From the IMG/VR virus record IMGVR_UViG_3300020451_002162, positions 27,566 to 91,565 of that record: 64,000 nt of DNA, one strand, 5' to 3'. Shown in pieces: positions 18,966-53,319 of this stretch. Every line of letters begins with the position of its first letter. The stretch's first letter is position 1. The position numbers were made by a program, and so were the translations under genes. The notes beneath the pieces were generated by a model. The model made no database searches and was not told the DNA's origin. It saw nothing but the letters and a program-made list of their open reading frames with translations. Source of the stretch: a virus.

Positions 18966-19427
18966 ATGAGACCTAACTGGACAGATTATTTTTTAGGATT
19001 AGCAAAAGTTGTTTCTCAACGTAGTCACGACATACATACACAACATGGTTGTATTATTACAGATAGAGATAATCTTATTTTAGGTACTGGCTATAATGGT
19101 TTTCCTAGAAATATCGACGATACAATACTTCCAACATCTCGTCCAGAAAAATATGCTTGGATGATTCATGCTGAACGAAACGCACTATCTAGTTGTACTC
19201 ACAAACCTACTAATGGTATCGCCTATGTCACAGGACAATGCTGTAATGATTGCATCATGTCTTTATGGCAAGCTGGTGTTTCTAAGGTTGTTATGGCCAA
19301 CAGCCACGGAACTAAATTATTTGATAAACAAGCACAAAAAAGATTTGATCTATTTGTGGAATTAACAGGAATAGAAATCGTAAGACATACACCAAATTTT
19401 TCATGGATTCAAGAAATAGATTTTTAA
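18966..19427 (+). CDS. dCMP deaminase
   Basis: RPNWTDYF, GTGYNGFP, HAERNAL, CCNDC zinc motifs. Confidence 0.92.
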   Translation: MRPNWTDYFLGLAKVVSQRSHDIHTQHGCIITDRDNLILGTGYNGFPRNIDDTILPTSRPEKYAWMIHAERNALSSCTHKPTNGIAYVTGQCCNDCIMSLWQAGVSKVVMANSHGTKLFDKQAQKRFDLFVELTGIEIVRHTPNFSWIQEIDF

Positions 19428-21803: not shown

Positions 21804-22535
21804 TTGAGAAAAAAACAAAAGAATGGAACTCGTAAAGGGTCCATAAAGCTAGATAGCAATAAAATTAATCCAGAAGAAATTGTTGTAGGATTTAAGAATA
21901 GATTAAAACCTAGAACGATTAATCAAAAAAACTACATTAGAACCGTAGCAGAAAATACTATTACTTTCTGTCAAGGTGTTCCGGGTAGTGGTAAAACCCA
22001 TATAGCTATAGGTATGGCCCTAGAATATCTCATAGATGACAAGGTCGAAAAGATTGTAATCACAAGACCTGTTGTAGAAGCTGGAGAAAGACTTGGCTTT
22101 TTACCTGGATCAGCAGAGGATAAGTTGCATCCGTATCTTTTACCTCTGTTCGATGAAATTAATTACTTTTTACACATGCAACATTATGCCAAACTAAAAG
22201 TAGGTAAAAGAATAGAAGTAGTTCCTTTGGGGCTAATGAGAGGTAGAAGTTTCCATAATGCCTTTATAGTTGCCGATGAGTGTCAGAATGCCTCATACGA
22301 TCAACTAAAAATGTTATTGACTAGAATAGGTATGGACAGCAAGATGATCCTAACAGGAGATGTCGCGCAATCAGATTTACAATTTGACAGACAGGGAGGC
22401 TTTCTGAGATTAATGCAGGTATTAGATGGAGTTGATGGTCTTGGTGTTGCTGAGTTAGAATCTACAGACATCGTAAGAAACGAAATCATATCTCGCGTTA
22501 TATGTCGCTTAGATGAATATGAGAATAGATCATAA
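21804..22535 (+). CDS. phoH: PhoH-like ATPase
   Basis: GVPGSGKT, RPVVEAGERLGFLPG, MRGRSF, DECQN, LTRIG, GDVAQSD. Confidence 0.95.
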   Translation: MRKKQKNGTRKGSIKLDSNKINPEEIVVGFKNRLKPRTINQKNYIRTVAENTITFCQGVPGSGKTHIAIGMALEYLIDDKVEKIVITRPVVEAGERLGFLPGSAEDKLHPYLLPLFDEINYFLHMQHYAKLKVGKRIEVVPLGLMRGRSFHNAFIVADECQNASYDQLKMLLTRIGMDSKMILTGDVAQSDLQFDRQGGFLRLMQVLDGVDGLGVAELESTDIVRNEIISRVICRLDEYENRS

Positions 22536-23088
22536 ACCGTGTTTGGTTCTTAACGCAGATTACAGTCCTGTCGCTATAGTAGAATGGCAAAGAGCTATAA
22601 TTTGGTCTTATAGATTGAATCATAGTACAGGAGGTTTGTCTATGGATATAATAGAATATTATAAAACAGATTTCATTAAAGGATCTAGTAATCAAACACC
22701 CCTACCTGCTGTAATCAAAATTAGAAATTATTTAAAGCTCCATAAACATTCTGTAAATTTTTCTAGAAAAAATTTATTTATTAGAGATAATTATACTTGT
22801 CAGTATTGTAATAAAAGATGTTCTCAGCAAGAATTAACATACGATCATGTAATTCCAAAATCTCAATGGCCTTTTAGGGACAAATCTCCTACTACTTGGA
22901 CGAATATAGTTACGGCTTGTACTAAGTGTAATCTTAAAAAAAGCAATAAAACCCCACAACAAGCTCAAATGCAATTACAAAACAAACCGATTAGACCATT
23001 TAGTAATTATAAATACTTGCATGTAACCTCTAGACTATCTATTATGAAAGATAAGATACCAGAAGAGTGGAAAATTTATACAGGATAA
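22513..23088 (+). CDS. HNH endonuclease (McrA-like)
   Basis: LVLNADY, RDNYTCQYC, TYDHVIPKS, NIVTACTKCNLKK. Confidence 0.9.
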   Translation: MNMRIDHKPCLVLNADYSPVAIVEWQRAIIWSYRLNHSTGGLSMDIIEYYKTDFIKGSSNQTPLPAVIKIRNYLKLHKHSVNFSRKNLFIRDNYTCQYCNKRCSQQELTYDHVIPKSQWPFRDKSPTTWTNIVTACTKCNLKKSNKTPQQAQMQLQNKPIRPFSNYKYLHVTSRLSIMKDKIPEEWKIYTG

Positions 23089-24944: not shown

Positions 24945-25379
24945 ATGGAATATATCTCTAAATACTCTAATGATAAAAGGGTATCTGCTGCTCAGTATAT
25001 CACAGAGATTATATGTGAACACAAAGCCAAAAAAGAAAGAAAAGACTTACATTTTCGATTTTGGCAAACCAGCAAGTACTGGGAAAAGTATTATAGAAGT
25101 CAAATAGCCACGGCAAATAAATTATTAAAAACATATAATCCTCAAGCAATAATATCTGCACTAAATGATAGGAAGTCTGTAAGAATTTTTTCGTTGAGGG
25201 CTCCTCACTTAGAAGCTATTATAGAACATCATCAGCATTTATTTGATAATAACAGTTCGAAACCACAGACAGAAATAGAAAGAGTTGACCCCGGTAAACT
25301 AAAGTCAAGAAAAGAATACAAACCCTATAAAAAAAGTATAATGGATATTTTAGATGATCAAGGAAAAGAAAATGGCTAA
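24945..25379 (+). CDS. Hypothetical protein
   Basis: Basic 144-aa ORF directly upstream of recA. Confidence 0.6.
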   Translation: MEYISKYSNDKRVSAAQYITEIICEHKAKKERKDLHFRFWQTSKYWEKYYRSQIATANKLLKTYNPQAIISALNDRKSVRIFSLRAPHLEAIIEHHQHLFDNNSSKPQTEIERVDPGKLKSRKEYKPYKKSIMDILDDQGKENG

Positions 25380-26391
25380 ATTAAAAGAAGAAGTAACTAA
25401 AACTTTTGGTAAAAATATTATTTTATCGGCTAATTCTATTATAGACAAACCATCAATGGTGGTCCCTATTGGACCCTCATTAGACATTATTTTAAATGGA
25501 GGTGTTCCTGAAGGTAGTTTTGTTGTATTAACAGGACAGCCCAAATGTGGGAAAACTACAACGTCTTTATCCTTTGCTGCTACTGCTCTTAAACCTGAAT
25601 ATCAAGGAGATCTACCTTCTCCCAGAAAAGCGTACTACCTAAACATCGAGGGTAGGTTGAAAAAGAGAGATTTAGAAGGAATACCGGAATTAGATTTGGA
25701 CAGATTTGATGTGATAGGTTCTCAACAGGGTAAGATTTTGCATGCAGAAGAGTATCTACAAATTGCAGAAAAAATAATCAATCAAGAACCAGGTAGTATA
25801 TTAATTATCGATTCTTATTCAGCCTTATGCACAGAAGCTGAAATTACATCAGATATGAATAAAATGCAAAGAGCAGATGGAGCTAAACTCTTAGCTAAGT
25901 TTTGTAGAAAAGTTGCCAATGTTATTCCCGTTAATAAAAATTTGGTTATTGGTATTACACACCTTATGGGAAATCCAACAGGTTATGGTGCAGAATTTAA
26001 AGAGAAGAGTGGTCAGGCAGTAGCGTATCAAACGGATATTAAACTGAGAGCGAAAACGTTTTCACCTTGGCTACTAAATAAAGATACCAATTCTCAAATA
26101 GGACAAGAAGTAACGTGGCAAGTCGTCACTTCTGCACTAGGTCCTCCGGGAGGATCTATCACCAGCTATTTAAGATATGGACAAGGCATAGATAAAGAAA
26201 TGGAAGTAGTCAATCTAGCTATAGATTTAGGTCTTATTCAAAAAGCTGGTGCATGGTATACTCTAAGTTTTGTTGAGGAGAAAGAAAAACCCAAAGCTCA
26301 AGGGGCAGAAAAAGTTAGACAATATATAGTAGATAATCCTGGATGCTACGATAAGCTTTATGCTGCGATTAAAGAGACTATGGGTATTTAG
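25372..26391 (+). CDS. recA: RecA/UvsX-like recombinase
   Basis: SLDIILNGGVPEG, Walker A GQPKCGKTT, IIDSYSAL, YGQGID, LIQKAGAWY. Confidence 0.9.
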   Translation: MAKLKEEVTKTFGKNIILSANSIIDKPSMVVPIGPSLDIILNGGVPEGSFVVLTGQPKCGKTTTSLSFAATALKPEYQGDLPSPRKAYYLNIEGRLKKRDLEGIPELDLDRFDVIGSQQGKILHAEEYLQIAEKIINQEPGSILIIDSYSALCTEAEITSDMNKMQRADGAKLLAKFCRKVANVIPVNKNLVIGITHLMGNPTGYGAEFKEKSGQAVAYQTDIKLRAKTFSPWLLNKDTNSQIGQEVTWQVVTSALGPPGGSITSYLRYGQGIDKEMEVVNLAIDLGLIQKAGAWYTLSFVEEKEKPKAQGAEKVRQYIVDNPGCYDKLYAAIKETMGI

Positions 26392-27683: not shown

Positions 27684-29147
27684 ATGATACTATCCAACCC
27701 ATCCGCTGAGAGAGCTGTACTATCGGCTATTATTAAATACGGCTCAGATATATTTTATGATGTATCTGATATATTAACAGATAAATGCTTTACTATAGAC
27801 AGTAATTCCAATATATTTCAGTGTATAAAAAAATCTATAGAAAAAAATAATCAAGATCAAATAGATTTAGCTTCTATCTATAGTAGCGCACAAGAACTTG
27901 GTATGTCTAAAGTGTTTTCTACCAAAGAAGAAAATCAGCACTTAAAAGCAGTCATAGATTTCCCGGTAGAAAAAGAAAATGCTAGAAAATTTGCTACACA
28001 AATTAGAAAATTAGAGATAGCAAGAGAACTAAGAGAAAAACTACAGTCTGCTCAGAACGACCTACTTGATGTTACAGGCACGGAAAATGTATCTTCTATC
28101 TTGTCTATAGCTGAAGATAGCGTTCTTAATTTTTCGGAAAGTTTAACAGATACAGATAATCATCCGTCTCCTATGAGTGACGACATAGATGAATATATTC
28201 AACACCTTATAGATAACAAAACTGAGCAAGTAGGTATACCAACAGGATTTCCTGTATATGATTCTTCTATTGGCGGAGGTTTAAGAAAAGGCACTGTTAA
28301 TGTTATAGCGGCCCGACCAAAAACTGGTAAAACTTTGTTGTCTGATAACATGGGCTTTTTTATTGCTAGTAAAATGGGTGTTCCTGTTTTAAATTTAGAT
28401 ACAGAAATGAACAAAGAAGATCATATCAACCGCATATTAGCTATGATTACAGAAGTATCTATTAATAAGATAGAAACCGGTAGGTTCGTAGATTCAGCTA
28501 GCCATAAAACAAAAATAGAAAAAGGTATACAAAAAATCAAAGACTCAAAACTATATTACAAATCTATTGCTGGAAAAAGTTTTGATGAGCAGATATCTTT
28601 GATGAGAAGATGGATAATGACAGAGGTAGGAATGAACAGTGATGGCACAGCTAAAGATTGTGTTATATTTTACGATTATTTAAAATTGATGGATACTCAG
28701 GGTATGTCTCAAGATATGAAAGAATATCAGGTTCTTGGATTTATGATGACAGCCTTACATAACTTTGCTGTAAAGTATAAGATACCAATTGTTTCATTTA
28801 TACAATTAAACCGAGATGGCATCACCAAGGAAACCACCGATGCCGCAAGTGGTTCTGACAGAATCGTATGGTTGTGTAGTAATTTTAGTATTTTCAAAAG
28901 AAAAACAGATGAAGAAATAGCAGAAGACGGACCAGATAATGGTAATAGAAAATTAGTGCCTATTATCAGTAGACATGGTGGAGGATTAGATGACAACGAC
29001 TATATTAATTGTCATATGAAAGGCTGGTGTGCAAAAATTACAGAAGGCAAAACTCGACAAGAAGTAGTAAATAATACAGGAGACGATAAGGATGGCTTTG
29101 TTATTGGAGAAGAAGGTGAAGAACCAGAAACATTCACGTTTAATTAG
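27684..29147 (+). CDS. dnaB: DnaB-like replicative helicase
   Basis: AERAVLS, GIPTGF, AARPKTGKT, DTEM, DYLKLM, QLNR. Confidence 0.93.
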   Translation: MILSNPSAERAVLSAIIKYGSDIFYDVSDILTDKCFTIDSNSNIFQCIKKSIEKNNQDQIDLASIYSSAQELGMSKVFSTKEENQHLKAVIDFPVEKENARKFATQIRKLEIARELREKLQSAQNDLLDVTGTENVSSILSIAEDSVLNFSESLTDTDNHPSPMSDDIDEYIQHLIDNKTEQVGIPTGFPVYDSSIGGGLRKGTVNVIAARPKTGKTLLSDNMGFFIASKMGVPVLNLDTEMNKEDHINRILAMITEVSINKIETGRFVDSASHKTKIEKGIQKIKDSKLYYKSIAGKSFDEQISLMRRWIMTEVGMNSDGTAKDCVIFYDYLKLMDTQGMSQDMKEYQVLGFMMTALHNFAVKYKIPIVSFIQLNRDGITKETTDAASGSDRIVWLCSNFSIFKRKTDEEIAEDGPDNGNRKLVPIISRHGGGLDDNDYINCHMKGWCAKITEGKTRQEVVNNTGDDKDGFVIGEEGEEPETFTFN

Positions 29148-30261
29148 TCAAGACAAATTAAAAGTAGTTTGTGACGGATTATGTGATAATATTGAAGAAT
29201 TGCTTGAACGATTTGATATTGAATATTCTTGCAATGGTAAACTATTAAGCATGTCCTGTCCTATACATGGTGGTGATAATACTACAGCTCTTAATATATA
29301 TCCGGAAGGAGATACATATAGAGGAAACTGGAAGTGTAGAACGCACGGATGTGAAGAGGTATTTAAAGGTTCAATTATAGGATTTATTAGAGGTATACTA
29401 TCTAGACATAAACATAACTGGGAAAAATCAGGAGACAAAACGGTATCTTTTCAGGAAACTTTAAATTTTTGTTTAGCTTTTATAAATCAAGATCTTGATA
29501 AAATATCTATTGATCATACACATAGAGACAAAAGTAAATTTGTAGCAGCAATAAAAAATACTAGTAATAATTCTGAAAAAGTAGAAAATGGCGTAGCCAG
29601 AAATGTTGTTAGGAAACATCTAGATTTAAAACACCCGTATTATATAGATCGAGGATTCTCAGCAGAAATTTTAGATAAATATGATGTTGGATATTGTTCT
29701 TCTAAAGGTAAAGAAATGTCTGGTCGGATTGTAGTGCCAGTATATGATCATGATTATCATCATATGATAGGCTGTACAGGTAGAAGCATATTCGACGTTT
29801 GTAACAAATGTAAGCACTATCATGAGGCAGGTACTGCATGTCCCGATAAGAATGTGTTGTTTTTACATAGTAAATGGAGACATAGTAAAGGTCTGAAAAC
29901 ACAGAATTATCTATACAACATCTGGTTTGCTAAAAAGTTTATTAAGACAACATATACTGCTATAGTGGTAGAAAGTCCAGGTAATGTATGGAGACTTGAG
30001 GAAGCTGGTATACACAATAGTGTTGCAATATTTGGCTCTTCTATGAGCGATAGACAAAAAATGATACTTGATGCTTCAGGAGCTATGAATATAATAACAA
30101 TTATGGATAATGACGAAGCGGGACAAAAAGCGGCAGATAAAATAAAAACAAAGTGTTGTAAAACCTATAATGTTAAAAATCTAAAAATTAAAACCGCTGA
30201 CATTGCAGAAATGTCTGTTCAACAAATTAACGAAGAAATTAAACCTTTACTTAGTATGTGA
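29092..30261 (+). CDS. dnaG: DnaG-type primase
   Basis: Zn finger CPIH..WKCRTHGC; GRIVVPV; GCTGR; TOPRIM VVES..MDNDEAG; extra CNKC..H..C insert. Confidence 0.88.
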   Translation: MALLLEKKVKNQKHSRLISQDKLKVVCDGLCDNIEELLERFDIEYSCNGKLLSMSCPIHGGDNTTALNIYPEGDTYRGNWKCRTHGCEEVFKGSIIGFIRGILSRHKHNWEKSGDKTVSFQETLNFCLAFINQDLDKISIDHTHRDKSKFVAAIKNTSNNSEKVENGVARNVVRKHLDLKHPYYIDRGFSAEILDKYDVGYCSSKGKEMSGRIVVPVYDHDYHHMIGCTGRSIFDVCNKCKHYHEAGTACPDKNVLFLHSKWRHSKGLKTQNYLYNIWFAKKFIKTTYTAIVVESPGNVWRLEEAGIHNSVAIFGSSMSDRQKMILDASGAMNIITIMDNDEAGQKAADKIKTKCCKTYNVKNLKIKTADIAEMSVQQINEEIKPLLSM

Positions 30262-30269
30262 GTTTTATT

Positions 30270-31025
30270 ATGACAACAATTATAGCTCTTTCAGGAAGAA
30301 AGCAATCGGGCAAAACTACCATTGGTAATTTTTTTATTAGCTTGTTTCTCTCAAACGCAGGAGTTTCAAAAGAAATAAAAATAGAAGATGATGGAGACAT
30401 TACTCTTTCTGATATTCATGGTAATGAACTATACAAAAAAATAACACCAAGATATGAATTAGAAAAAGATTTCGTTGTAGCAAATTTATATAAAGAGCTA
30501 GATCAGCACATAAAAATATATAATTTTGCTGATACATTAAAACAGAATGTTTGTATGGAAGTGCTTGGTTTATCTTATGAGCAGTGTTATGGCACGGACG
30601 AAAATAAAAATGAACTTGTCGATTGTTTTTTGCCGTGTACCACACTATCTCGTGAGACAGAAGCTGACAAGCAAATGACAGCGAGAGAAGTCATGCAATA
30701 TGTAGGCACTGATATTTTTAGAAGAATTAAAAAAACAGTATGGATAGACAGCACGATGTCTCGCATATCTAAAGAAAAACCGAAAATGGCAATTATTACT
30801 GATTGTAGATTTCCGGACGAGGTTGATGCCGTCAAGAATGCAGGAGGGTATGTGATCAGGTTAACCAGAGATTTGCATAACTCATCACATATTAGTGAAA
30901 CTGCCTTGGACAAAGAGAACTATGATTGGAAGAATTTTGATTATGTGTTAGATAATCAGAATCTAACTATATATGAACAATCTTTACAAATCCAGGAATG
31001 GTTAGACACATTACCAGCTACATAA
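30270..31025 (+). CDS. Deoxynucleoside monophosphate kinase (T4 gp1-like)
   Basis: SGRKQSGKTT, FADTLK, TAREVMQYVGTDIFR, ITDCRFPDE, HISE. Confidence 0.88.
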   Translation: MTTIIALSGRKQSGKTTIGNFFISLFLSNAGVSKEIKIEDDGDITLSDIHGNELYKKITPRYELEKDFVVANLYKELDQHIKIYNFADTLKQNVCMEVLGLSYEQCYGTDENKNELVDCFLPCTTLSRETEADKQMTAREVMQYVGTDIFRRIKKTVWIDSTMSRISKEKPKMAIITDCRFPDEVDAVKNAGGYVIRLTRDLHNSSHISETALDKENYDWKNFDYVLDNQNLTIYEQSLQIQEWLDTLPAT

Positions 31026-31026
31026 T

Positions 31027-32070
31027 ATGATTATAACTTACTTTCGTTCTTCTAGCTACAACACGCACAATATGTGCCCTCAGCAATATTTTTTTGAATA
31101 TGTCCTTGGGTGGAGAGGTAGTTCTGGGCTGAAAGCTGACAAAGGAACTATTGTACACAAAGTATTAGAAATACTAGCTGTTATAAAACAAGGTTTACAA
31201 AATAATAAAAAAGAAATTATAGATGACATACTAGGAAATATTAGCACTACAGAATATGATTTAGAAGAAATTATTAAACAAGTTTATGATCATTACTCTT
31301 CACATAATAGTCATCACAACTGGAAACCGAGAGATAGTAAAGACTGTAGAGATTGGGTATATAAAGCATTAGAATTTAATGATGGTATGTTTGATCCTAG
31401 AAAAAGGAATATTTTAGAACCAGAACAACATTTTGATTTTGAAATTAATAAAAGCTGGGCAGATTATGACTATGAAACATCCGAAGGTAGACTATCTGGC
31501 AAACTAGCACTAAAAGGAACGATAGATTTAATCACATTAGTTAATGACGAAACCATAGAAATTATAGATTGGAAAACTGGTAAAAGGCTAGATTGGGCTA
31601 CAGGTAAAGAGAAAACCCAAGAAAAACTTGAAGTAGACCCTCAGTTAAGAATATATTACTATGCTATCAAAAATTTGTATCCAAATATTAAATATGTTAT
31701 TTTCTCTATATATTTTATAAATGATGGAGGACCTTTCTCTGTTTGTTTTGGTGATGAAGACATGGAAGCAACCGAACATTTGTTAAGACAAAAATTTGAG
31801 CATATAAAACATACTCGCAAGCCAAATCTAAAAAAGAGCTGGATGTGTACCAAGTTATGTCATTTTGGCAAAACAACATTCGAGGATACGCATATTGAGC
31901 CAATGGATGAATATAGAGATAATCAAAGAACAACGCCCGGATATACTATGACGAAGTGTGAACAAGTTAAACACGATTTAGACTTGTACGGCATAGACGC
32001 AACTACTAATATATATAAACACCCTAACCATAAATTTGGAAAATATCAAGCTCCCGGATCAACAGAATGA
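31027..32070 (+). CDS. PD-(D/E)XK RecB/Cas4-like exonuclease
   Basis: SS..CPQQY..Y, GTIVHKVLE, GTIDL, IIDWKTG, QLRIY, CTKLC..C (possible Fe-S ligands). Confidence 0.85.
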   Translation: MIITYFRSSSYNTHNMCPQQYFFEYVLGWRGSSGLKADKGTIVHKVLEILAVIKQGLQNNKKEIIDDILGNISTTEYDLEEIIKQVYDHYSSHNSHHNWKPRDSKDCRDWVYKALEFNDGMFDPRKRNILEPEQHFDFEINKSWADYDYETSEGRLSGKLALKGTIDLITLVNDETIEIIDWKTGKRLDWATGKEKTQEKLEVDPQLRIYYYAIKNLYPNIKYVIFSIYFINDGGPFSVCFGDEDMEATEHLLRQKFEHIKHTRKPNLKKSWMCTKLCHFGKTTFEDTHIEPMDEYRDNQRTTPGYTMTKCEQVKHDLDLYGIDATTNIYKHPNHKFGKYQAPGSTE

Positions 32071-33947
32071 ATCAGTATATACCTTTGCATGTGCATTCGC
32101 ACTATTCTTTATTGGACGGATTATCTAAGCCCGCACAGATAGCTGACAGGTGTTTAGAAATAGGCGTTAAATCTTGCGCTATCACAGATCATGGTACAAT
32201 ATCTGGCTGTGTACAGTTTTATGAAACCATGAAGAAAAAAAATATTAAACCAATCTTGGGCTGTGAAATCTATGTTTGTTCTCAAGATTCTCAAATCAAA
32301 AAACCAGAAAATGCTAAGCTGAGTCATTTCCTGTTACTTGCTAAAAATAAAGCAGGCTGGGATTCTCTTATACAACTAGTTTCTTACAGCAATGTTGAAT
32401 CTAGATACTATCATAAGCCTAGAGTTTCTCTAGATGACTTACAGCAATTTATAGATGGAAACACCATAGGTTTTTGTGGACATCTTGGTTCTACGTTAGC
32501 TAATATTATACAAAAAAATAAAGACAATTCTGTAATTAAAGAGGGTTGTGAATTTGTAGCTAGAATGCAAAGTGTATTTGGTAAAGATAATTTTTTCTTG
32601 GAAGCTCAACTCATGGATAGAGAGAATAATCCAGAGCAACAAGAAATGACAGACATGGTTAGAAGTATAGCAGAACAAAGCAATTGTAAAATGTTGTGTA
32701 CGCCAGATGCACATTATTGTAGACAAGAGGACTCTATAGATCAAAGAATATTATTATGCAACAATCTTAAAACCACATTGATTGATATTAATAAAAAGTG
32801 TTTAAACAACGAAAAAGTTCCAATGGGGGCTTTTTTCACTTCTGATAATTACCATATATTATCACAAGAAGAAATACAAGACTTACACACCCCAGAAGAA
32901 ATTGAGACTACAAATCTTATTGACAGTATGTGCGAAGAATACGATATTCTTAGTGCTCCAATATTACCTCCGTATGATTGTCCAAATAATGCTGATCCAG
33001 CTGAATATTTACGCGAATTATGTAGACAAGGATGGAAGAAAAAAATAGCTAATGATATTCCTAAAGAACAGCATCAAGCATATGTAGATAGAATTAAAAG
33101 AGAACTTGATGTTTTACAAGGCGCTGGTCTATCTAGTTATTTTCTAACTGTTGTCGATATAGTAGATTATGTTAGAAATAAAAATTGGTTACCTGGTCCC
33201 GGAAGAGGTTCTGCTGCAGGATGTTTGGTTTCATATCTAATTGGTATCACCTCTATAGATCCGATTAAATACAATCTTATTTTTGAAAGATTTTATAATT
33301 CTGGTAGAAATACCAAAGACAGAGTATCTATGCCAGATATTGATGTCGATGTACCAATTAATAAAAGAGAAGATGTCATATCTTATATTAAAAATAAATA
33401 CGGTAATGATAAAGTTTCTCAGATGATCACATACAATACCATGAAAGGAAGAGGAGCCTTAAAAGAAGTTTTAAGAGTTTATGGTAATATAAATTTTGAA
33501 GAAATGAATAGAATCACCAAAAACATCCCTGATGAAGCCAAAATAGCAGATGAACTACAAGAAATGAAAGAAATTACTGGAGAATCTTCTATTATTAGAT
33601 GGGCATTAGAAAATAATGTTGACAGACTCAAAGAATGGTGTTATATTGATGAGAGTGGACAATTAGCGGGTCCATTATCTAAAAGATTTGAGCAAGCTAT
33701 GCGTTTGGAAGGAACTAAGTCTAATCAATCAAAACATGCAGCCGGTGTAGTTATTAGTAGCAGTCCTTTGCGAGATATTTGTCCTATGGTTTTAGACACA
33801 AAAAACAAGCAACAAATAGCCGGAATGGAAATGCAAGACTTAGAAGCTCTTGGCATGATTAAGTTTGATATTTTAGGTATTGCTATGTTAGATAAAATCA
33901 TGTCTATATCAGAACATTTATTTAAAGGAGACACCGATGATAGCTAA
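32067..33947 (+). CDS. dnaE: DNA polymerase III alpha subunit, N-terminal half (PHP + palm + thumb)
   Basis: HVHSHYSLLDG, TDHG, DAHY, GPGRGSAAG, FERF, MPDIDVD, SKHAAG, KFDILG; stops about 20 aa after the third catalytic Asp. Confidence 0.93.
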   Translation: MNQYIPLHVHSHYSLLDGLSKPAQIADRCLEIGVKSCAITDHGTISGCVQFYETMKKKNIKPILGCEIYVCSQDSQIKKPENAKLSHFLLLAKNKAGWDSLIQLVSYSNVESRYYHKPRVSLDDLQQFIDGNTIGFCGHLGSTLANIIQKNKDNSVIKEGCEFVARMQSVFGKDNFFLEAQLMDRENNPEQQEMTDMVRSIAEQSNCKMLCTPDAHYCRQEDSIDQRILLCNNLKTTLIDINKKCLNNEKVPMGAFFTSDNYHILSQEEIQDLHTPEEIETTNLIDSMCEEYDILSAPILPPYDCPNNADPAEYLRELCRQGWKKKIANDIPKEQHQAYVDRIKRELDVLQGAGLSSYFLTVVDIVDYVRNKNWLPGPGRGSAAGCLVSYLIGITSIDPIKYNLIFERFYNSGRNTKDRVSMPDIDVDVPINKREDVISYIKNKYGNDKVSQMITYNTMKGRGALKEVLRVYGNINFEEMNRITKNIPDEAKIADELQEMKEITGESSIIRWALENNVDRLKEWCYIDESGQLAGPLSKRFEQAMRLEGTKSNQSKHAAGVVISSSPLRDICPMVLDTKNKQQIAGMEMQDLEALGMIKFDILGIAMLDKIMSISEHLFKGDTDDS

Positions 33948-34119
33948 AAAATTTGCAGAATTATCAGTAAACTCAAAATTTGTACATAATAATATTGAGT
34001 ATCAAAAATTGCAACCAATCAAAATATCTTGTTGTAAATCCGTTAATGCTTGTGTGGTATCTCAACCTGCTACAAAAGTATTTATTAACCCTAACCAGGA
34101 AGTTAAAGTAAATGGCTAA
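33937..34119 (+). CDS. 60-aa hypothetical protein between the DnaE halves
   Basis: AAGGAG RBS; overlaps both neighbouring genes; SCCKSVNAC. Confidence 0.65.
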   Translation: MIAKKFAELSVNSKFVHNNIEYQKLQPIKISCCKSVNACVVSQPATKVFINPNQEVKVNG

Positions 34120-34810
34120 TTTTCATAAAATTTGTGTATTTGATTTAGAAACAGATGGAACAGATCCAAACAGCTGCAGCCCTGTTCAAATTGCGGCTGT
34201 TATGGTCGATCCGTTCAAATTAGAAATTATACCTGATTCTAAATTTAATATTAATTTAAAACCAGAAAAATTAGAAGAGAATCAAAATTATGCCTATGAA
34301 GACAGTGACGTTTTAGATTTTCATGCAAAAGTTAAGGGAGTCACTAGCGCTCAAGTTTTAGACGAGTGGCAAAATTATCATTCTCAAAAACAAGGTTGGA
34401 CTTCTTTCGTGAGTTATTTAGATATGTATCATCTGGGTAATAGAAAAAAGAAATCTCAATTCACAGCTCCTATTGCGGCTGGTTATAATATTTTTAGGTT
34501 TGATTTGAAAATTATTGACAGACTAAGTAAAAAATATGGAAACACAAACGCAGAAAAAGGTAGTGCTTTGTTTTTCCCTAGAGATACTGTAGATTTAATT
34601 AATACGGTATTTTGTTGGTTTGAAGGAAATGACGAATTGAAAAACTATACCTTGGACCATCTAAGAGATTATTTTGGCATGGTTAAGGATGGTGCTCATG
34701 ACGCATTAAAGGATGTAGAAGATACTGCAGAATTAGCTATCCGTTTTCTAAGACTTCACAGAAAGCTTTCAGCTAAAATTAGATTTAAGGACTCTTTTGT
34801 AGCGAATTAG
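34112..34810 (+). CDS. DEDDh 3'-5' exonuclease (DnaQ/epsilon-like)
   Basis: ExoI FDLETDG, ExoII GYNIFRFD, ExoIII HDALKD. Confidence 0.9.
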   Translation: MANFHKICVFDLETDGTDPNSCSPVQIAAVMVDPFKLEIIPDSKFNINLKPEKLEENQNYAYEDSDVLDFHAKVKGVTSAQVLDEWQNYHSQKQGWTSFVSYLDMYHLGNRKKKSQFTAPIAAGYNIFRFDLKIIDRLSKKYGNTNAEKGSALFFPRDTVDLINTVFCWFEGNDELKNYTLDHLRDYFGMVKDGAHDALKDVEDTAELAIRFLRLHRKLSAKIRFKDSFVAN

Positions 34811-34817
34811 TAAATAA

Positions 34818-36431
34818 ATGAAAAATAAATATTTGACCTTTTCTTGTGGATGTAAGTTTCCATTGGGAGAAAATAATTCTGTAACATTTGATACAGATGT
34901 CTCTTCTTTAAATATGGAATGTTCTAAAACATGGGACTTGATATCTGAAGGTAATACTAAAGGATGTTTTCAGTTAGAATCAAGACTTGGACAATCTATG
35001 TCCAAAAAATTAAAACCGTCTAACATAGAACAATTATCTGGTTTAATTAGTATCCTAAGACCGGGCTGCTTAGAAGCCTATAGAGACGGCAAGAGTGTGT
35101 CTAATCATTATATAGACAAAAAAAATAATTTAGAGGGTATTGATTATTTCCATCCTAGCTTAGAAGATATACTACAACCTACGTACGGAGAAATGATATA
35201 TCAAGAACAAGCTATGAGAATTACACAAAAAATAGCTGGATTTGACCTAAAAGAAGCAGATATGCTTAGAAAAGCTATTGGTAAGAAAAAGCCTGAAGAG
35301 ATGGCAAAAGTTAAAAAAAGATTTATAACAGGGTGTAAGAAGGAAAATACTGTTTCTAAAGAAGAAGCTGAAGAAATATTTGGCTGGATTGAAAAAAGTC
35401 AAAGATATTCTTTTAATAAAAGTCATGCTATATCTTATGCAATGAACGCCTATCTGTCTGCTTATGCTAAAGCTCATTTCCCTAAAATGTTTTTTGCTTC
35501 ATATTTAAAATTTGCTAAAGATAAGATTGACCCTCAACAAGAGATTAAAGAACTCATCAGAAATGCTAGTGAAATGGATGTTTCCGTAAGCACCCCTGAC
35601 CTAAGAAACCTAAACAGGTTGTTTGTAGTCGGCTCTGAATATATATATTTTGGACTAACTGATATTAAAGGGGTTGGAAATTCTGTATTTGACAAAATTA
35701 TACAAATCACTCAAGAAGGTTTTGATGTAAGTAAAACTTCTTGGTGCTATATCCTATTCGGTTTGTTATTAAAAATCAATTCCACCGCAGTTAAAGCTTT
35801 GATCAGTTCTGGGGCCTTAGATTATCTTAAAATAAATAGAACCAAAATGCTATTTGAGTACGATATAGCTTCTTCTCTAACAAAAAAAGAAGCAGCTTTC
35901 TGCGAAACACAATCTATGGAAATAGACAAGTTGAAAACTTTATTAGAGAATTTATTAGATGCTCCAAGAGTAAATAAAAATAGGAAAATCAAAATAAATG
36001 ATGCAATTAGTATGCTAAAAAAACCTCCGTACTCTCTACAAGACCGTATAGAATGGTTATCAGACAGCGAGAGTTCTTTACTGGGTGCTGCTATATCTTG
36101 TTGTAAATTAGATTCTTACGATATCAGTATGACCAATACGGATTGTAAGACATTTAAAAAGAGTCATAATAAAAATAATATTATTATTGCTGGAGAAATA
36201 AGCGGCGTAAATGTAGTTAAGACTAAAAAGGGTAAAAATCCTGGTCAAGATATGGCTTTTGTAACCATAGAAGACAGTACTGGCATATTAGACTCTGTGA
36301 TAATGTTTCCAGAAACTTGGTCGCAATACAAACACCATATATTTGATAGTAATGTACTTGTTTTTGTAGGAAATAAAACTAAGCAGTCAGACGGGTTTAT
36401 AGTCGAAAAATGTTTCGACGCACACACTTGA
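34818..36431 (+). CDS. dnaE: DNA polymerase III alpha subunit, C-terminal half (fingers + HhH + OB)
   Basis: FQLES, LRPG, YQEQAM, DMLRKAIGKKK, YSFNKSHA, GLTDIKGVG, MAFVTIEDSTG. Confidence 0.93.
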   Translation: MKNKYLTFSCGCKFPLGENNSVTFDTDVSSLNMECSKTWDLISEGNTKGCFQLESRLGQSMSKKLKPSNIEQLSGLISILRPGCLEAYRDGKSVSNHYIDKKNNLEGIDYFHPSLEDILQPTYGEMIYQEQAMRITQKIAGFDLKEADMLRKAIGKKKPEEMAKVKKRFITGCKKENTVSKEEAEEIFGWIEKSQRYSFNKSHAISYAMNAYLSAYAKAHFPKMFFASYLKFAKDKIDPQQEIKELIRNASEMDVSVSTPDLRNLNRLFVVGSEYIYFGLTDIKGVGNSVFDKIIQITQEGFDVSKTSWCYILFGLLLKINSTAVKALISSGALDYLKINRTKMLFEYDIASSLTKKEAAFCETQSMEIDKLKTLLENLLDAPRVNKNRKIKINDAISMLKKPPYSLQDRIEWLSDSESSLLGAAISCCKLDSYDISMTNTDCKTFKKSHNKNNIIIAGEISGVNVVKTKKGKNPGQDMAFVTIEDSTGILDSVIMFPETWSQYKHHIFDSNVLVFVGNKTKQSDGFIVEKCFDAHT

Positions 36432-36455
36432 CTTATGTTCTGCTTAGGCTATAAT
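36428..36455 (+). promoter_or_regulatory. Sigma70-type promoter for ssb
   Basis: TTGACT-16 bp-TATAAT; AGGAG at 36487-36491. Confidence 0.65.
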
Positions 36456-36495
36456 ACACTATTGTTGTGTCACTTTTTAAATTTTTAGGAGTTAA

Positions 36496-36894
36496 TTGAA
36501 ACTTATGAATATTACGATTTTAAGAGGAAATCTTGCTAGAGATCCAGAATACAGAACCGTTAATACCAACGGCAAACAAACAGGTGTAGTTAATTTCACC
36601 GTTGCTGTATCAAGAGAATATACCAAAGCAAATGGAGAGAGAGATAAAATTGCGTCGTTTATTAATTGCGAGGCTTGGGATACTGGTGCAGAAATTATTA
36701 GCAATTCTTTCAAGAAGGGTGACCTAGTTCTTGTCGAAGGCTCTCTCAGAAACGATAGCTGGGAGAAGGACGGAGTTAAGCATAGTACTCTTAAAGTTAG
36801 GGTGAATAACTTCTCAAAGATTACAAAGCTTAGCCGACAACAGAAGAAGGAAAAGGTTTCTTCGGGACAAGAGACTGAACCTGTCAGCTTCTAA
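36496..36894 (+). CDS. ssb: Single-stranded DNA-binding protein
   Basis: LRGNLARDPE, NFTVAV, FINCEAW, KGDLVLVEGSL, C-terminal EPVSF; start may be ATG 36505. Confidence 0.93.
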   Translation: MKLMNITILRGNLARDPEYRTVNTNGKQTGVVNFTVAVSREYTKANGERDKIASFINCEAWDTGAEIISNSFKKGDLVLVEGSLRNDSWEKDGVKHSTLKVRVNNFSKITKLSRQQKKEKVSSGQETEPVSF

Positions 36895-36912
36895 GCAAAG
36901 AATGCTTTTCAA

Positions 36913-36957
36913 GCGGTGTCTGCATTATTACATTGGTAGTGCAGGCGCCGCATTTTT
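36913..36957 (+). terminator. Rho-independent terminator
   Basis: 18-bp stem GCGGTGTCTGCATTATTA/TGGTAGTGCAGGCGCCGC with 5 G-U pairs, 3-nt loop, then ATTTTT. Confidence 0.8.
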
Positions 36958-36978
36958 ATATCAGAAGTAATTTTAAAT

Positions 36979-38652
36979 ATGACAAAAAAACTAAAGATAT
37001 TGATGGCAACAGAAGCTAGTTTTCTTAGTACTGGTTTTGCTAATTATACTAGAGAATTGCTAACAAGATTACACGCTACCAACAAATACGATATAGCAGA
37101 ATTTGCTGCGTATGGACATGTTAATGATCCTAAAGACATAAATATTCCTTGGAAATACTACCCTAATGCTGTTAGGCCCAATGATAGTAGACATAAAGAA
37201 TACATGTCTAGCGCAGATAATCAATTTGGAAGATGGCGCTTTGATCCTGTTGTATTAGATTTTAAGCCTGATATCGTCATTGATATTAGAGATTATTGGA
37301 TGAGTAATTACGAGCAATATTCTTCTTTTAGAGATTTTTTCCATTGGATATTAATGCCTACGGTTGATTCAGCACCTCAGCAGCAAACATGGCTAGACAC
37401 TTATGAGTCAGCAGACGCCATATTTACATATTCCGATTTTGGCGCAAGAACACTCAAACAACAAACTAATAATAGTATTAATTACATAGACACTGTTTCT
37501 CCGGGAATAGATTTGGAAGCATTCTTTCCCAATACAGAGGAAGATAGACGCAAACTTAAGCAAAGTATAGGATTACCCGAAGACGCAATAATTGTAGGTT
37601 CAGTTATGCGTAATCAAAAAAGAAAACTAATACCAGAACTAGTAAAGTCTTTTAGAATTACACTGGACCACTATAGGAAAACGAATCCAGAATTAGCCCA
37701 AAAAATATATCTATATTTACATACTAGTTTTCCTGATGCTGGATGGGACTTACCAGAAATATTGAAAGATGAACAAGTACTAAATAAAACTATTATTACC
37801 TACAGCTGTCCACAATGTAATAATATCTCGCCTGCAAATTTTTGTGGACCACGATCAAGATGTCCACATTGCCATAATTCTACTAGAGTAATACCTTCTG
37901 TAGCACAAGGAGTGAGCGTAGAAACATTACGCCAAATATACTCGCTGATGGATATATACGTGCAGTATGCTATATGTGAAGGCTTTGGTATGCCTCAAGT
38001 CGAAGCAGCTGCGTGTGGTGTTCCGGTCGCTACTGTCAATTACAGTGCTATGGAAGATGTTATAGATAAACTTGATGCATATTCTATCGACATAGGTTCA
38101 TATTTTAAAGAATTAGAAACAAAAGCTATTAGGGTATATCCTGACAACGAAAGCTTGAAAAGTATTTTAATAAAATTTATCGATCAATCACAAGAAGAAA
38201 AAGAACAGCTTAGAGTTAAAACCAGAAGCTTGATAGAAAAACACTATAACTGGAAAGACATAGCAAAAAAATGGGAAAAATATTTAGACACTATTCCCAG
38301 TAAGCAATCTGAATGGAATAGGCCCGCTAAATTTCTTGTTCCAATAGATCCGTCTATACTCAATGAAAATCCACAAAATTTAAATTATATGGCATTAATG
38401 ACTAGTATTTGTGCTAATAATCTTAAAAATATAAATTTAATATCTAGTAAAAGAATATTGAACATTTTACAACACCTAGAATATGGATATGTACAACAAG
38501 GTCCCTCTGTGAGAAACTACTCTTTACAAGAAGCTATACAAGAACTTAATGTTTATATAGAAAATATAAACAACGCAGAAAAGGCTAGGGTTTCTGGCTA
38601 TAAATCGGAAGAAGATTATATTAAGTACTCCAAAATAAAGGCTTCTACATGA
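36979..38652 (+). CDS. GT-B (GT4-like) glycosyltransferase with a zinc-ribbon insertion
   Basis: TGFANY, VMRNQKRK, YLYLHT, CPQC..CPHC, EGFGMPQVEAAACGVP, YNW..IAKKW. Confidence 0.88.
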   Translation: MTKKLKILMATEASFLSTGFANYTRELLTRLHATNKYDIAEFAAYGHVNDPKDINIPWKYYPNAVRPNDSRHKEYMSSADNQFGRWRFDPVVLDFKPDIVIDIRDYWMSNYEQYSSFRDFFHWILMPTVDSAPQQQTWLDTYESADAIFTYSDFGARTLKQQTNNSINYIDTVSPGIDLEAFFPNTEEDRRKLKQSIGLPEDAIIVGSVMRNQKRKLIPELVKSFRITLDHYRKTNPELAQKIYLYLHTSFPDAGWDLPEILKDEQVLNKTIITYSCPQCNNISPANFCGPRSRCPHCHNSTRVIPSVAQGVSVETLRQIYSLMDIYVQYAICEGFGMPQVEAAACGVPVATVNYSAMEDVIDKLDAYSIDIGSYFKELETKAIRVYPDNESLKSILIKFIDQSQEEKEQLRVKTRSLIEKHYNWKDIAKKWEKYLDTIPSKQSEWNRPAKFLVPIDPSILNENPQNLNYMALMTSICANNLKNINLISSKRILNILQHLEYGYVQQGPSVRNYSLQEAIQELNVYIENINNAEKARVSGYKSEEDYIKYSKIKAST

Positions 38653-45306: not shown

Positions 45307-48300
45307 TTAAGACAAAGGTATTGTAGAAGTATTTGGCTCTGCACCGTCGAATAGATATGTTTGTGAGTCAAACACGGATGCTCCGAAACCACAATCCTGA
45401 TTTAATTTATAAGTTACAACTGTTCCCCAATTACCGTGATCTTGATCAACTACGGGAATTACTTGTATCTCATTCGACTCCAAAAATTCAGAAGGAGACA
45501 ACGTTACTCGACCTCTAACATCGTTTATATTGCACGCTCCACTTTTACTCATGATAAGGTCAGCCTGACCTATGGAGGTGCCGTCTAGAAAATACAAGCG
45601 ATAGGAAGGATAAACACTACCATCAGGATCAACTACCATATTAGCACTAGAAAATACTGTTGATCCATTCCATACAATGTCTAAATTGTCATCAGTAATT
45701 GCGTTCGCATTACAAATCTCAACAACGTATCCCCGGCTATTACCCTCGATCGCTTCTGCTGAACTCTGAACAGGTTTAAAGTCATAAGGTATCCATTCCC
45801 AAGGTTCTTGCGATGTCAATATTGTCTTATTTGTTTGTTCAATTTTATCATTACTACCAAAAAATCCTCTAAAAATCATTTCGTTCATCATTTGATAGAA
45901 AGGTGGAGTATCTACATATTCACCATCATGATCTACGCATCTCCAACAATAAAAATCTGCAGCTAAATCATAATTTGTACTAGGGGGTATTACACTTGTT
46001 CCTAATCCTCCATCACTAGTTGGTAAATATCTTTTAAATCTTTGATCATGAGATTTTAGTTTTCTAGGAGGCATTACTCTAAATTTCATATATACAGGCT
46101 TGCCAAAATCTATTACTTCTTTTAGTTGATAATCAATATATGTTGACCCTAAAGCAGCAGGACGTTCATAAAAATCTTCCCAAGCAAATAAAGTATCATT
46201 AAAACTCTCCCCATATCCAAACATCATTTTGTTTATATCTACTTGACTAGTAGATGTACTACCAATAGATATGTCTACCATATTACTAAAATTTAACGTA
46301 GGATCAACTTGCAACCAAGCATTTTTAATTTCTTGTTGTTTGGTATCTGTATATTCTATAAGATAGTTCCCGCCGTTACGATCAGTTAGCTTAACTTGTC
46401 CCGTGTCTTTATCTGGAATAGCATAATTGCTGAAATTATTATCAAGCGGACTCATTTGACTATCTTCAATCAAAACAGTACCTTGAACAGATCGATTGAT
46501 AGGCAGAACTTGAAGTTCTGTAGACACAGGTATTTTTACACTCATTTCATTACTAACAAAACAGCCGTTTTCTGGATCTATATGTATCCAATAAAGATCT
46601 GTGTCATTATACTTAATTTCAATACCGCCATTAGCAAATAATGCAAGTCCGGATATATGAGCAGCAACTGTTGTGCTAGTAGTAGCTATACCAGAGGCAT
46701 GAAAAATATCATCTGCTTCTTTCTTTTTTGCAACAATTCTTTGTTTAACATTCATCGCAGGACAGTCTTCAAAATTATAGTCATTACTACTATAACATTT
46801 GATAGGATCTGCAGAAAGAGTATTATAAAAAGCATTTAACGCTCTGATGTTATTCCCATCCATAGCTTCTGTTATATTGTTGTAGATATAATCCCCAGTA
46901 CCAGTAATTTCATCATAAAAATCAATCATCCGAGAATAATTATCTGAATCAAATCTCACAACCTTATTATTGAAATTAAGGTCAGCATCGATAGTAATTG
47001 TCCCAGTATCTGCTATGTTTATGTCTTCTTGATTGAAAAGTTTGTTGGTTTTAATCTCTATAAAATCTTGCTGCGCTAATTGTTCAAGAGCTAAATAAAT
47101 CGGCTGATATGTATTATTTATATCAACAGATTTAAACTCATCATAATTTTTAGGATCTGGTGTTGTATTAGCATCATAAGCAGTTCTTTCTAATAAAGAG
47201 AATTCTTTAGATACTACATCGGTACTATAAAGTCCTATGTCTTCAATACTATAACGATATGCTCTTAGCTTGTCTCCTAACGAATCTGATTGATTAAAAG
47301 TAAAATATGTCCCATTATTTAAATTAAAATTAAAATATTTATAGTAATCATTAACACTATTATTAGCTTGTTCGTATAAAGAAAATGATTCATTTATCTT
47401 TTGTTCTGTATCTAATTTTCCGGGTCTAACTACATCTGTTCCATAGCCAATAGAACCTTCAGCAGTAGCAGTACTGTAACTATTGTAATTATTAGTTCTT
47501 AGTCCTTGTTTGTGCTCTTCCATAGGCCACTTATATATGTTATCAATATTTGATGTCCAATCAGATTTATTGTCTGAAGTGTTATATGTAGGATTAAACA
47601 CTAAAATACTATTACAGCTCGTAGCGGGCAAACCTAAACGACCTTCGGGATAAACAGGCTCTTCAAAGCTAAGTATGGTTTTATAACCAGCATTTGTAGC
47701 TATTAAAGATTTATTAGTAATTACGGCTTCTGTATTAGACCCGTCTAAAACTGTTTGACCAATATCAAAAAAGTAGTATCCTCTATAACCATCAATAATA
47801 ATGTGCTTAGTAGTAATATCCGATGTACTACTTTCCTCCTCAGGAAGACCTGGTGGAGGTGGAGGTGGAGGTGCTCCACCATCTCCAGCTGAGTCGTCCT
47901 CCTCCTCAGCAGGTGCTATCTCTTGTAAACGCAGTCTTAACCATTCAGTAGCTGAAGGAGCTAAGGTTTCAACTATCCATGTATTATTATTAAGAAAATC
48001 TCTGGATGATGTATTACTTGCTGTCTGGGCATCCCCAACATCTTGTAATTCCGCTCCAGTTGGAATGTTGTTCGTTATACTAATATTATTTTGAGTATAA
48101 TATGATGTGTTTTTTATAGTTGTGGTTCTTATTATGGGATTTATTGCTTCGGATTCTGCATCATAATCTGGCTCAGAGTTTATTGTAACTTCAATATTTG
48201 GATTACTTGAGTAGGACAAAGTATTGAATGCTTGTCCCTCAGAACTTGTGTCGTTATCAAAAGAAGTGTGTCCTATTTTATGATTAATTTTAAAAATCTC

Positions 48301-53307: not shown

Positions 53308-53319
53308 CTATTTAATTCC

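Follow-up and report, generated by a model that had tools for sequence, protein, structure and literature searches.

In a 64,000-nucleotide (nt) stretch of DNA from an uncultured marine phage (positions 27,566 to 91,565 of the IMG/VR record IMGVR_UViG_3300020451_002162; hereafter the window, in whose numbering coordinates are given unless a locus is named), the sole recognisable DNA polymerase is a family-C enzyme of the DnaE type that is encoded by two genes. The first (the N-half; 32067-33947, + strand, 626 amino acids (aa)) stops at the border between palm and fingers, and the second (the C-half; 34818-36431, + strand, 537 aa) carries the remainder. They are set apart by 870 nt, which hold two other genes of the same strand, one for a mini-protein of 60 aa (33937-34119) and one for a 232-aa DEDDh 3'-5' exonuclease of the RNase T/DnaQ superfamily (34112-34810). 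We consider it probable, with good confidence, that the two halves form a non-covalent heteromer which acts as one polymerase together with the exonuclease as an epsilon-like subunit. An earlier note on this DNA, prepared from the letters alone, had described both halves, a 60-aa open reading frame (ORF) and an exonuclease filling the gap, and a tight coupling of all four. This description was confirmed: the N-half and the mini-ORF overlap by 11 nt and the mini-ORF and the exonuclease gene by 8 nt, a spacer of 7 nt leads from the exonuclease gene to the C-half, and the mini-ORF is preceded by a strong Shine-Dalgarno site (AAAGGAG).

Together, the halves amount to one DnaE. The N-half contains a PHP domain (PF02811, E=7.6e-39) followed by the palm and thumb of a family-C polymerase (PF07733, DNA_pol3_alpha, E=2e-74), and it aligns to residues 7-625 of Taq DnaE (E=1e-77) and 5-564 of E. 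coli alpha. It holds all three catalytic aspartates, D424 and D426 in the motif MPDIDVD and D601 in KFDILG, and ends about 25 residues after the latter. In an alignment of 21 sequences, on which the statements on conserved residues in this and the other large proteins rest, these aspartates are invariant, as are the PHP metal ligands D17, H42, E67, H87, H139, D214 and H216; H8 and H10 are kept in at least 90% of the sequences, and the assumption that the PHP domain retains its metal ligands is thereby supported. The C-half contains the fingers (PF17657, E=1.9e-45), a helix-hairpin-helix (HhH)/beta-binding region (PF14579, HHH_6, E=1.6e-8) and an OB fold, the last with a match below the cut-off (PF01336, E=0.008), and it aligns to Taq DnaE 635-947 (E=1e-52) and E. 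coli alpha 584-899. Its RYSFNKSH and GKKK blocks are invariant. An AlphaFold2 (AF2) model of the C-half (predicted local distance difference test score (pLDDT) of 80) shows a hairpin formed by residues 5-7 and 13-16 and a C-terminal beta-barrel. Of the 1022 positions of the NCBIfam model TIGR00594, the N-half covers 1-570 and the C-half 577-1021, so that essentially nothing of a DnaE is missing. The domain assignment of the earlier note (PHP, thumb and all catalytic aspartates on the first protein; fingers, HhH and OB on the second) agrees with the Pfam matches, with the Taq and E. coli alignments and with this tiling. As judged from the alignments, the break lies at the palm/fingers border, directly after the third catalytic aspartate. 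PHP, palm and fingers/HhH/OB regions of a DnaE-type polymerase are thus all present; what the enzyme lacks is the single polypeptide, as it is encoded by two ORFs here and in about 70 contigs.

Two genes could nevertheless yield a single-chain DnaE if the halves were rejoined by a cryptic or short split intein, by an intron, or by translational bypass or frameshifting. We regard this as very improbable. Neither half has a Hint/intein domain in Pfam, a covariance scan of positions 31000-37500 against Rfam (E up to 1) found no intron or other RNA family, and no recoding signal was found at the locus. The N-half extends for about 18 residues past its last Taq-aligned residue and the C-half starts about 15-25 residues before its first one, and since the N parts of natural split inteins comprise 88-105 aa, with a shorter C part (PMC2677866), there is no room for an intein at this break. 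The claim of the earlier note that the split is free of inteins is therefore well founded, all the more as the same approaches detected true inteins in the split DnaE of locus L061 and, by Pfam, in the proteins P0123, P0129, P0132, P0148 and P0167. These examples also show that inteins are common in the wider family, which is a point in favour of rejoining: P0129 and P0148 terminate in an N-intein close to an FNKSH-like site, P0132 and P0167 hold full inteins, and P0123 has an intein in the fingers. In L061 (838-3919) the N-half is itself a 'fractured gene', with an N-intein after GPGRG, a C-intein ending in VHN before SAAGC, and two free-standing ORFs (90 and 155 aa) between the pieces; by its sequence, the DnaE of this locus is made from three genes, one break being healed by an intein and the other not. 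That the N- and C-halves of the window happen to share one reading frame might also be taken to favour a joint product, but this relation differs among loci. Unrelated genes moreover lie between the pieces in three of them, namely five genes in 3.6 kb between exonuclease gene and C-half in L034 (8740-12383), three small ORFs in 0.7 kb at the same place in L075, and an insertion of 2.7 kb between N-half and exonuclease gene in L078. Contiguity, splicing or read-through is therefore not needed. Finally, a joint that skips 33948-34817 was seen neither in DNA nor in RNA-library contigs of marine metagenomes, which are short. Contigs matching the stretch occur in marine metagenomes of 11 studies; those from RNA libraries are identical to parts of the N-half, the exonuclease gene and the C-half and, being short, are no proof of transcription.

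The split is conserved well beyond the window. A scan of IMG/VR gave 65 loci with N-halves at 58-97% identity, and in every locus that reaches far enough the genes stand in the order PD-(D/E)XK nuclease, N-half, mini-ORF, exonuclease, C-half, SSB; synteny in related contigs, which the earlier note had named as a check, thus speaks for its reading. Four further contigs from NCBI bins of metagenome-assembled genomes (L082-L085) have the same order. These bins are labelled Alphaproteobacteria, Chitinophagia, Flavobacteriales and 'bacterium'; the contigs are probably of phage origin and were mis-binned into bacterial genomes, and because the labels conflict we claim no host. The exonuclease gene is still found between the halves in relatives at only 36-52% identity (L071, L072, L075, L078 and L079). 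At identities of at least 70% there are more than 100 clusters (at 90% identity) of N-halves, 605-632 aa in length. An exhaustive HMMER search was run over 1.84 billion cluster representatives, and among the best 150 representatives of 50%-identity clusters about 140, at 38-66% identity, stop 18-54 residues past the start of KFDILG. In the 'phages' collection neither DNA nor protein searches gave a relative above about 35% identity, and among viral contigs the queries P0127, P0249 and P0226 drew no related loci; P0141 gave L070-L079.

This conservation also bears on the suspicion that the locus is an artefact of misassembly or frameshifting, or a decaying, no longer functional dnaE gene that an inserted cassette has interrupted. 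The suspicion can draw on the existence of contiguous relatives at 43-52% identity and on the nearest phage DnaE in GenBank (MT835501, 34% identity), which is contiguous as well. However, about 70 contigs, each assembled independently, share this break, as does the large majority of the cluster representatives mentioned above, and independent DNA contigs span the junctions between N-half, mini-ORF and exonuclease gene without a single difference. The ratio of non-synonymous to synonymous substitution rates (dN/dS) is 0.03-0.06 for the N-half, 0.02-0.04 for the exonuclease gene, about 0.03 for the C-half and 0.11-0.26 for the mini-ORF, so all four genes are under purifying selection. Catalytic motifs are kept throughout the alignments, and neither scattered stop codons nor relaxed selection was seen in the halves of close relatives. 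A second polymerase was not found in the record, where PF07733 matches this locus only. Misassembly and relaxed selection had been singled out in the earlier note as findings that would overturn its reading; given the recurrence of the break, the low dN/dS values (0.02-0.06 in the large genes) and the lack of gap-skipping contigs, misassembly, pseudogenisation and splicing are effectively excluded, and we attach next to no probability to an artefact or a decaying gene. On the evidence of these sequences, the split is conserved and under selection, and the halves are independent genes.

Several related loci carry additional insertions or breaks. The genes inserted in L034 comprise a 142-aa ORF, an FkbM-like methyltransferase, a DUF1559-type prepilin (MKKKGFTLVELLVVIAIIG…), a 90-aa Cys/Ala-rich ORF and ThyX; the DUF1559-type pilin hints at a host among the Planctomycetota. 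In L079 (5998-8849) the N-half is broken again near residue 420-427, with a 226-aa endonuclease-like ORF and no obvious intein between the pieces, and in L082 (1948-4929) a 1.1-kb insert lies in the N-half near residue 420-427 and the PD-(D/E)XK gene is interrupted too.

The wider family also includes DnaE proteins in one piece, P0127, P0145 and P0194 in plain form and P0123 with the fingers intein already mentioned. In two trees these contiguous forms fall within the split family, in two clades, a placement that would imply re-fusion of the halves. An approximately unbiased (AU) test with all contiguous forms placed on one side gave p=0.059, for a group that was named after the tree had been seen. 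Neither re-fusion nor a single split is established.

Even as two conserved genes, the halves need not form one polymerase. They could act apart: the N-half might be, for example, a stand-alone PHP nuclease or a nucleotidyltransferase with impaired function, and the C-half might bind DNA or a clamp, with replication left to the host polymerase. Two observations show that the modules can evolve separately. In P0247 (762 aa) an N-half consisting of PHP and palm is fused at its C-terminus to a circularly permuted YpsA (cpYpsA)/SLOG domain rather than to fingers, and the PHP ligands have degenerated in the lineage of L078 (L078:5986-7548; the HxH and DH ligands are lost, with the N-terminus MSWSPINNTTHYSCC… and AIADNN, and the CGC head of the C-half (see below) and the exonuclease gene are kept). 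Against separate functions stand the co-occurrence of both halves, in conserved order, in every locus that is long enough, and the invariance of residues on either side of the break: the C-half retains FNKSH and GKKK, which are needed for polymerisation only, and the N-half retains the three catalytic aspartates. To our knowledge no family-C palm without fingers has polymerase activity, as considered from the E. coli and Taq alpha structures. We therefore think it unlikely that the halves work independently of each other.

The exonuclease encoded in the break is matched by PF00929 (RNase_T, 45.2 bits at a cut-off of 24) and by phrog_192, 'DNA polymerase exonuclease subunit'. Of its DEDDh residues, E13, D131, H196 and D201 never vary in the aligned sequences, and D11 is kept in at least 90% of them. 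With a full set of ligands in the PHP domain and this DEDDh site, it is plausible that the enzyme has two proofreading sites. The C-terminus of the exonuclease (encoded by 34784-34807) carries a KFKxSF motif, in which F225 and F229 are invariant and which is kept in exonucleases of only 31-36% identity (EKFKGSF in L075, VKFKDCF in L078 and KNFKKAF in L079). This tail is a candidate docking peptide, which we offer as speculation. The only phage matches to the exonuclease, at 27% identity, come from the Bacteroides phages SJC03 and DAC16-23, where the gene adjoins the terminase and not a DnaE; these were discarded as relatives of the locus. Longer, fused forms of the exonuclease or the mini-protein were not found by searches based on alignment, which is weak evidence.

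The mini-ORF is a real gene: 55 of the 65 close loci reach the gap and every one of these has it, it is under purifying selection, and its product has a confidently predicted fold. Its AF2 model (pLDDT 93.6) is a five-stranded all-beta SH3-like barrel. The fold matches are weak and generic (the KOW domain of eIF5A/EF-P, ribosomal protein L2, FeoA and Tudor domains), the best Foldseek E value being 0.024 and VIA Z being at most 5. The protein matched no family of Pfam, PHROG or NCBIfam and gave no tblastn match in the 'phages' collection; in the ESM Atlas only unnamed viral clusters of about 60 aa were related to it. In L071 and L072 the stop codon of the N-half runs directly into the exonuclease gene and the mini-ORF is absent. 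The mini-protein is probably an accessory or adaptor subunit specific to a sub-clade. A function equivalent to that of theta (HolE) was considered and rejected, as the model is all-beta and SH3-like, theta is a helical bundle, and no family match was obtained.

The earlier note had suggested that cysteine motifs of the mini-protein and of the C-half form a metal clasp. Such a clasp, in which one zinc ion bound by both proteins would staple the subunits to each other, has some attraction. C32 and C33 are, with F6 and F15, the only invariant residues of the mini-protein, and the CGC near the start of the C-half is present as described (residues 10-12), with C10, G11, C12, F14 and C35 invariant in the 21 aligned relatives. 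AF2 places CGC at a hairpin turn, resembling a zinc knuckle, and C35 at the start of a helix, and the CGC head is missing from the contiguous DnaE relatives and so must have arisen with or after the split. However, the proposed CCxxxxxC motif of the mini-protein does not hold up beyond its two adjacent cysteines, the third being variable, and the two motifs occur without each other: L029 and L077 keep the CC of the mini-protein and lack the CGC head (L029 also lacks C35), and L075 and L078 keep CGC and the later cysteine in the absence of a mini-protein gene. A further cysteine, C572 of the N-half, occurs in contiguous forms too. The motifs are thus not interdependent, and we judge a zinc site shared by mini-protein and C-half to be unlikely. 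If the CGC...C site binds a metal, it more probably does so within the C-half alone or together with some other partner.

From these data we propose the following course of events. A dnaE gene would have been broken at the palm/fingers border and since then kept as two separately translated genes. The N-half would supply PHP, palm, thumb and the three catalytic carboxylates, the C-half the fingers with the FNKSH and GKKK blocks that bind the deoxynucleoside triphosphate (dNTP), the HhH/beta-binding region and the OB fold. Both would re-associate non-covalently along what is normally the intramolecular interface of palm and fingers, so that one active site results. The DEDDh exonuclease would probably join them as an epsilon-like proofreading subunit and the SH3-like mini-protein, in the sub-clade that has it, probably as an accessory or adaptor subunit. 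Since the four genes are tightly coupled in translation, their products would tend to be made in balanced amounts.

Several points weigh against this model or limit it, and have to be set against the evidence above. Non-covalent binding, activity and the roles of exonuclease and mini-protein are read from the genes and represent the most likely interpretation of them. A prediction of the complex of the mini-protein with residues 300-626 of the N-half, the exonuclease and residues 1-350 of the C-half returned a score of 0.00, which speaks neither for nor against it. The contiguous forms P0127, P0145 and P0194 show that the split is not obligatory for function. The epsilon models of NCBIfam score 18-23 bits at best with the exonuclease, at cut-offs of 186-236, and a profile search of the PDB gave weak matches to the PolC exonuclease domain and ExoI only; the protein is a distant DEDDh member whose assignment as a proofreading subunit rests mainly on its conserved position. 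As regards a holoenzyme, a sliding clamp was not found in the record, which is 65% complete.

A more far-reaching interpretation would see the split as no neutral accident. The replicase core would then have four parts, palm, fingers, DEDDh exonuclease and SH3-like adaptor, with dedicated assembly devices at the new termini: the knuckle of CGC and Cys35, the KFKxSF tail of the exonuclease and the CC loop of the mini-protein. We find this doubtful at present. If it were true, fingers on a chain of their own would allow subunit exchange or regulated assembly, the contiguous forms nested in the split family would record re-fusions, and no other natural source of an orthogonal, intein-free split site for polymerases of family C would be as large as this family.

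The locus lies in a 91.5-kb virus record, of which an estimated 65% is present, and the window has a G+C content of about 33%. ORF calls and Pfam matches place it in a co-directional block of replication genes on the + strand, from the DnaB helicase to SSB (27684-36894). Upstream of the N-half follow DnaB (27684-29147), a Toprim primase (29092-30261), a deoxynucleoside monophosphate (dNMP) kinase (30258-31025) and the PD-(D/E)XK nuclease (31027-32070), in an order that is kept in related loci, and SSB (36496-36894, PF00436) stands directly downstream of the C-half, again in a position kept in related loci. Elsewhere in the window, the gene of a free-standing HNH endonuclease comes after that of a PhoH-like ATPase (21804-23088), near genes for a RecA/UvsX-like protein (25354-26391), ribonucleotide reductase (19581-21779) and dCMP deaminase (18966-19427). 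The - strand carries two giant ORFs (2666 and 2278 aa) back to back (45307-60156). Ten other large ORFs of the window, these two not among them, were submitted to PHROGs, and seven gave no match.

Family-C polymerases replicate bacterial chromosomes and are usually viewed as single large catalytic chains, the known exception being the DnaE that is rejoined by an intein. Here, in a group of aquatic phages that is diverse, abundant and very large, the catalytic carboxylates reside on one polypeptide and the fingers that bind the dNTP on another. If biochemistry confirms the activity of the complex, it will offer a natural, evolution-tested point for the non-covalent splitting of DnaE in enzyme engineering, a compact phage Pol III core that can be compared with alpha-epsilon-theta, and a case study of an essential gene that survived fission and perhaps re-fusion. 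There is also a consequence for annotation: each piece is labelled 'DNA polymerase III subunit alpha' by pipelines, which may mark it as a fragment or a pseudogene.

Compared with bacterial DnaE (E. coli, 2hnh; Taq, 2hpi), the phage enzyme has the same set and order of domains and all catalytic and PHP metal residues. It differs in consisting of two chains, with the break between E. coli residues 564 and 584 and an exonuclease gene in the break, in lacking the tau-binding C-terminal domain and in having the clade-specific CGC head. The E. coli Pol III core consists of alpha, epsilon and theta, of which theta is a helical bundle. The phage locus resembles it in that a polymerase, a DEDDh exonuclease and a very small third protein are encoded together; the exonuclease, however, is below the epsilon cut-offs, the mini-protein is all-beta and alpha comes in two chains.

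Cyanobacterial DnaE is reportedly split as well (Wu et al. 1998), with a trans-splicing intein that joins the parts. Both systems have dnaE in two genes, but intein halves are present only in cyanobacteria. The cyanobacterial break, as given by NF007079 and NF005616, maps about 200 residues further on, at YSFNKSH (FNKSH being residues 199-203 of the C-half), and the earlier note was right to place it more C-terminally, near FNKSH. In the 'fractured' dnaE of the GOS data a free-standing ORF lies between intein-bearing pieces (Dassa et al. 2009, PMC2677866); the gap of the phage gene holds a DEDDh exonuclease and an SH3-like mini-protein and not a homing endonuclease.

Intein-free split polymerases, two-gene DnaE among them, have already been published for phages, and in this respect the earlier note overstated the novelty of its finding. 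The best experimental model for the phage DnaE described here is PolB of PhiKZ, likewise an intein-free two-gene phage replicase, for which cryo-EM and activity assays showed that DNAP-N and DNAP-C form a stable and active 1:1 complex (bioRxiv 2026, PMC13648687). PhiKZ PolB belongs to family B, is split within a palm insertion with a catalytic aspartate on each subunit, and is encoded by distant genes, whereas the present enzyme belongs to family C, has all three aspartates on one subunit and is encoded by adjacent and coupled genes. Microbacterium phages of cluster EF have two adjacent DnaE-like genes without an intein (genes 56 and 57 of AnnaSerena; PMC7302621). AnnaSerena therefore shares the intein-free two-gene DnaE, but differs in the site of the break, which is at the PHP/palm border (345 aa + 767 aa) and leaves palm and fingers contiguous, and in the gap, as nothing lies between the genes. 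Group 2.2 jumbo phages have a minimal Pol III alpha in the form of two stand-alone proteins that are predicted to reconstitute the enzyme (Iyer et al. 2021, PMC7824862). This module lacks PHP and other domains, is encoded by genes far apart and accompanies a PolB, in contrast to the full-length DnaE split here, which is the sole polymerase found. The DnaE of Bacillus phage Jayan breaks within the palm near residue 420, and the PHROG families include PHP-only and core-only fragments, none of which ends at the palm/fingers site of the present gene. A full-text literature search gave no description of this break point or of a nested exonuclease. New, in comparison with all these systems, are the break right after the third catalytic aspartate, the exonuclease gene that stays nested between the halves across deep divergence, and the size of the family.

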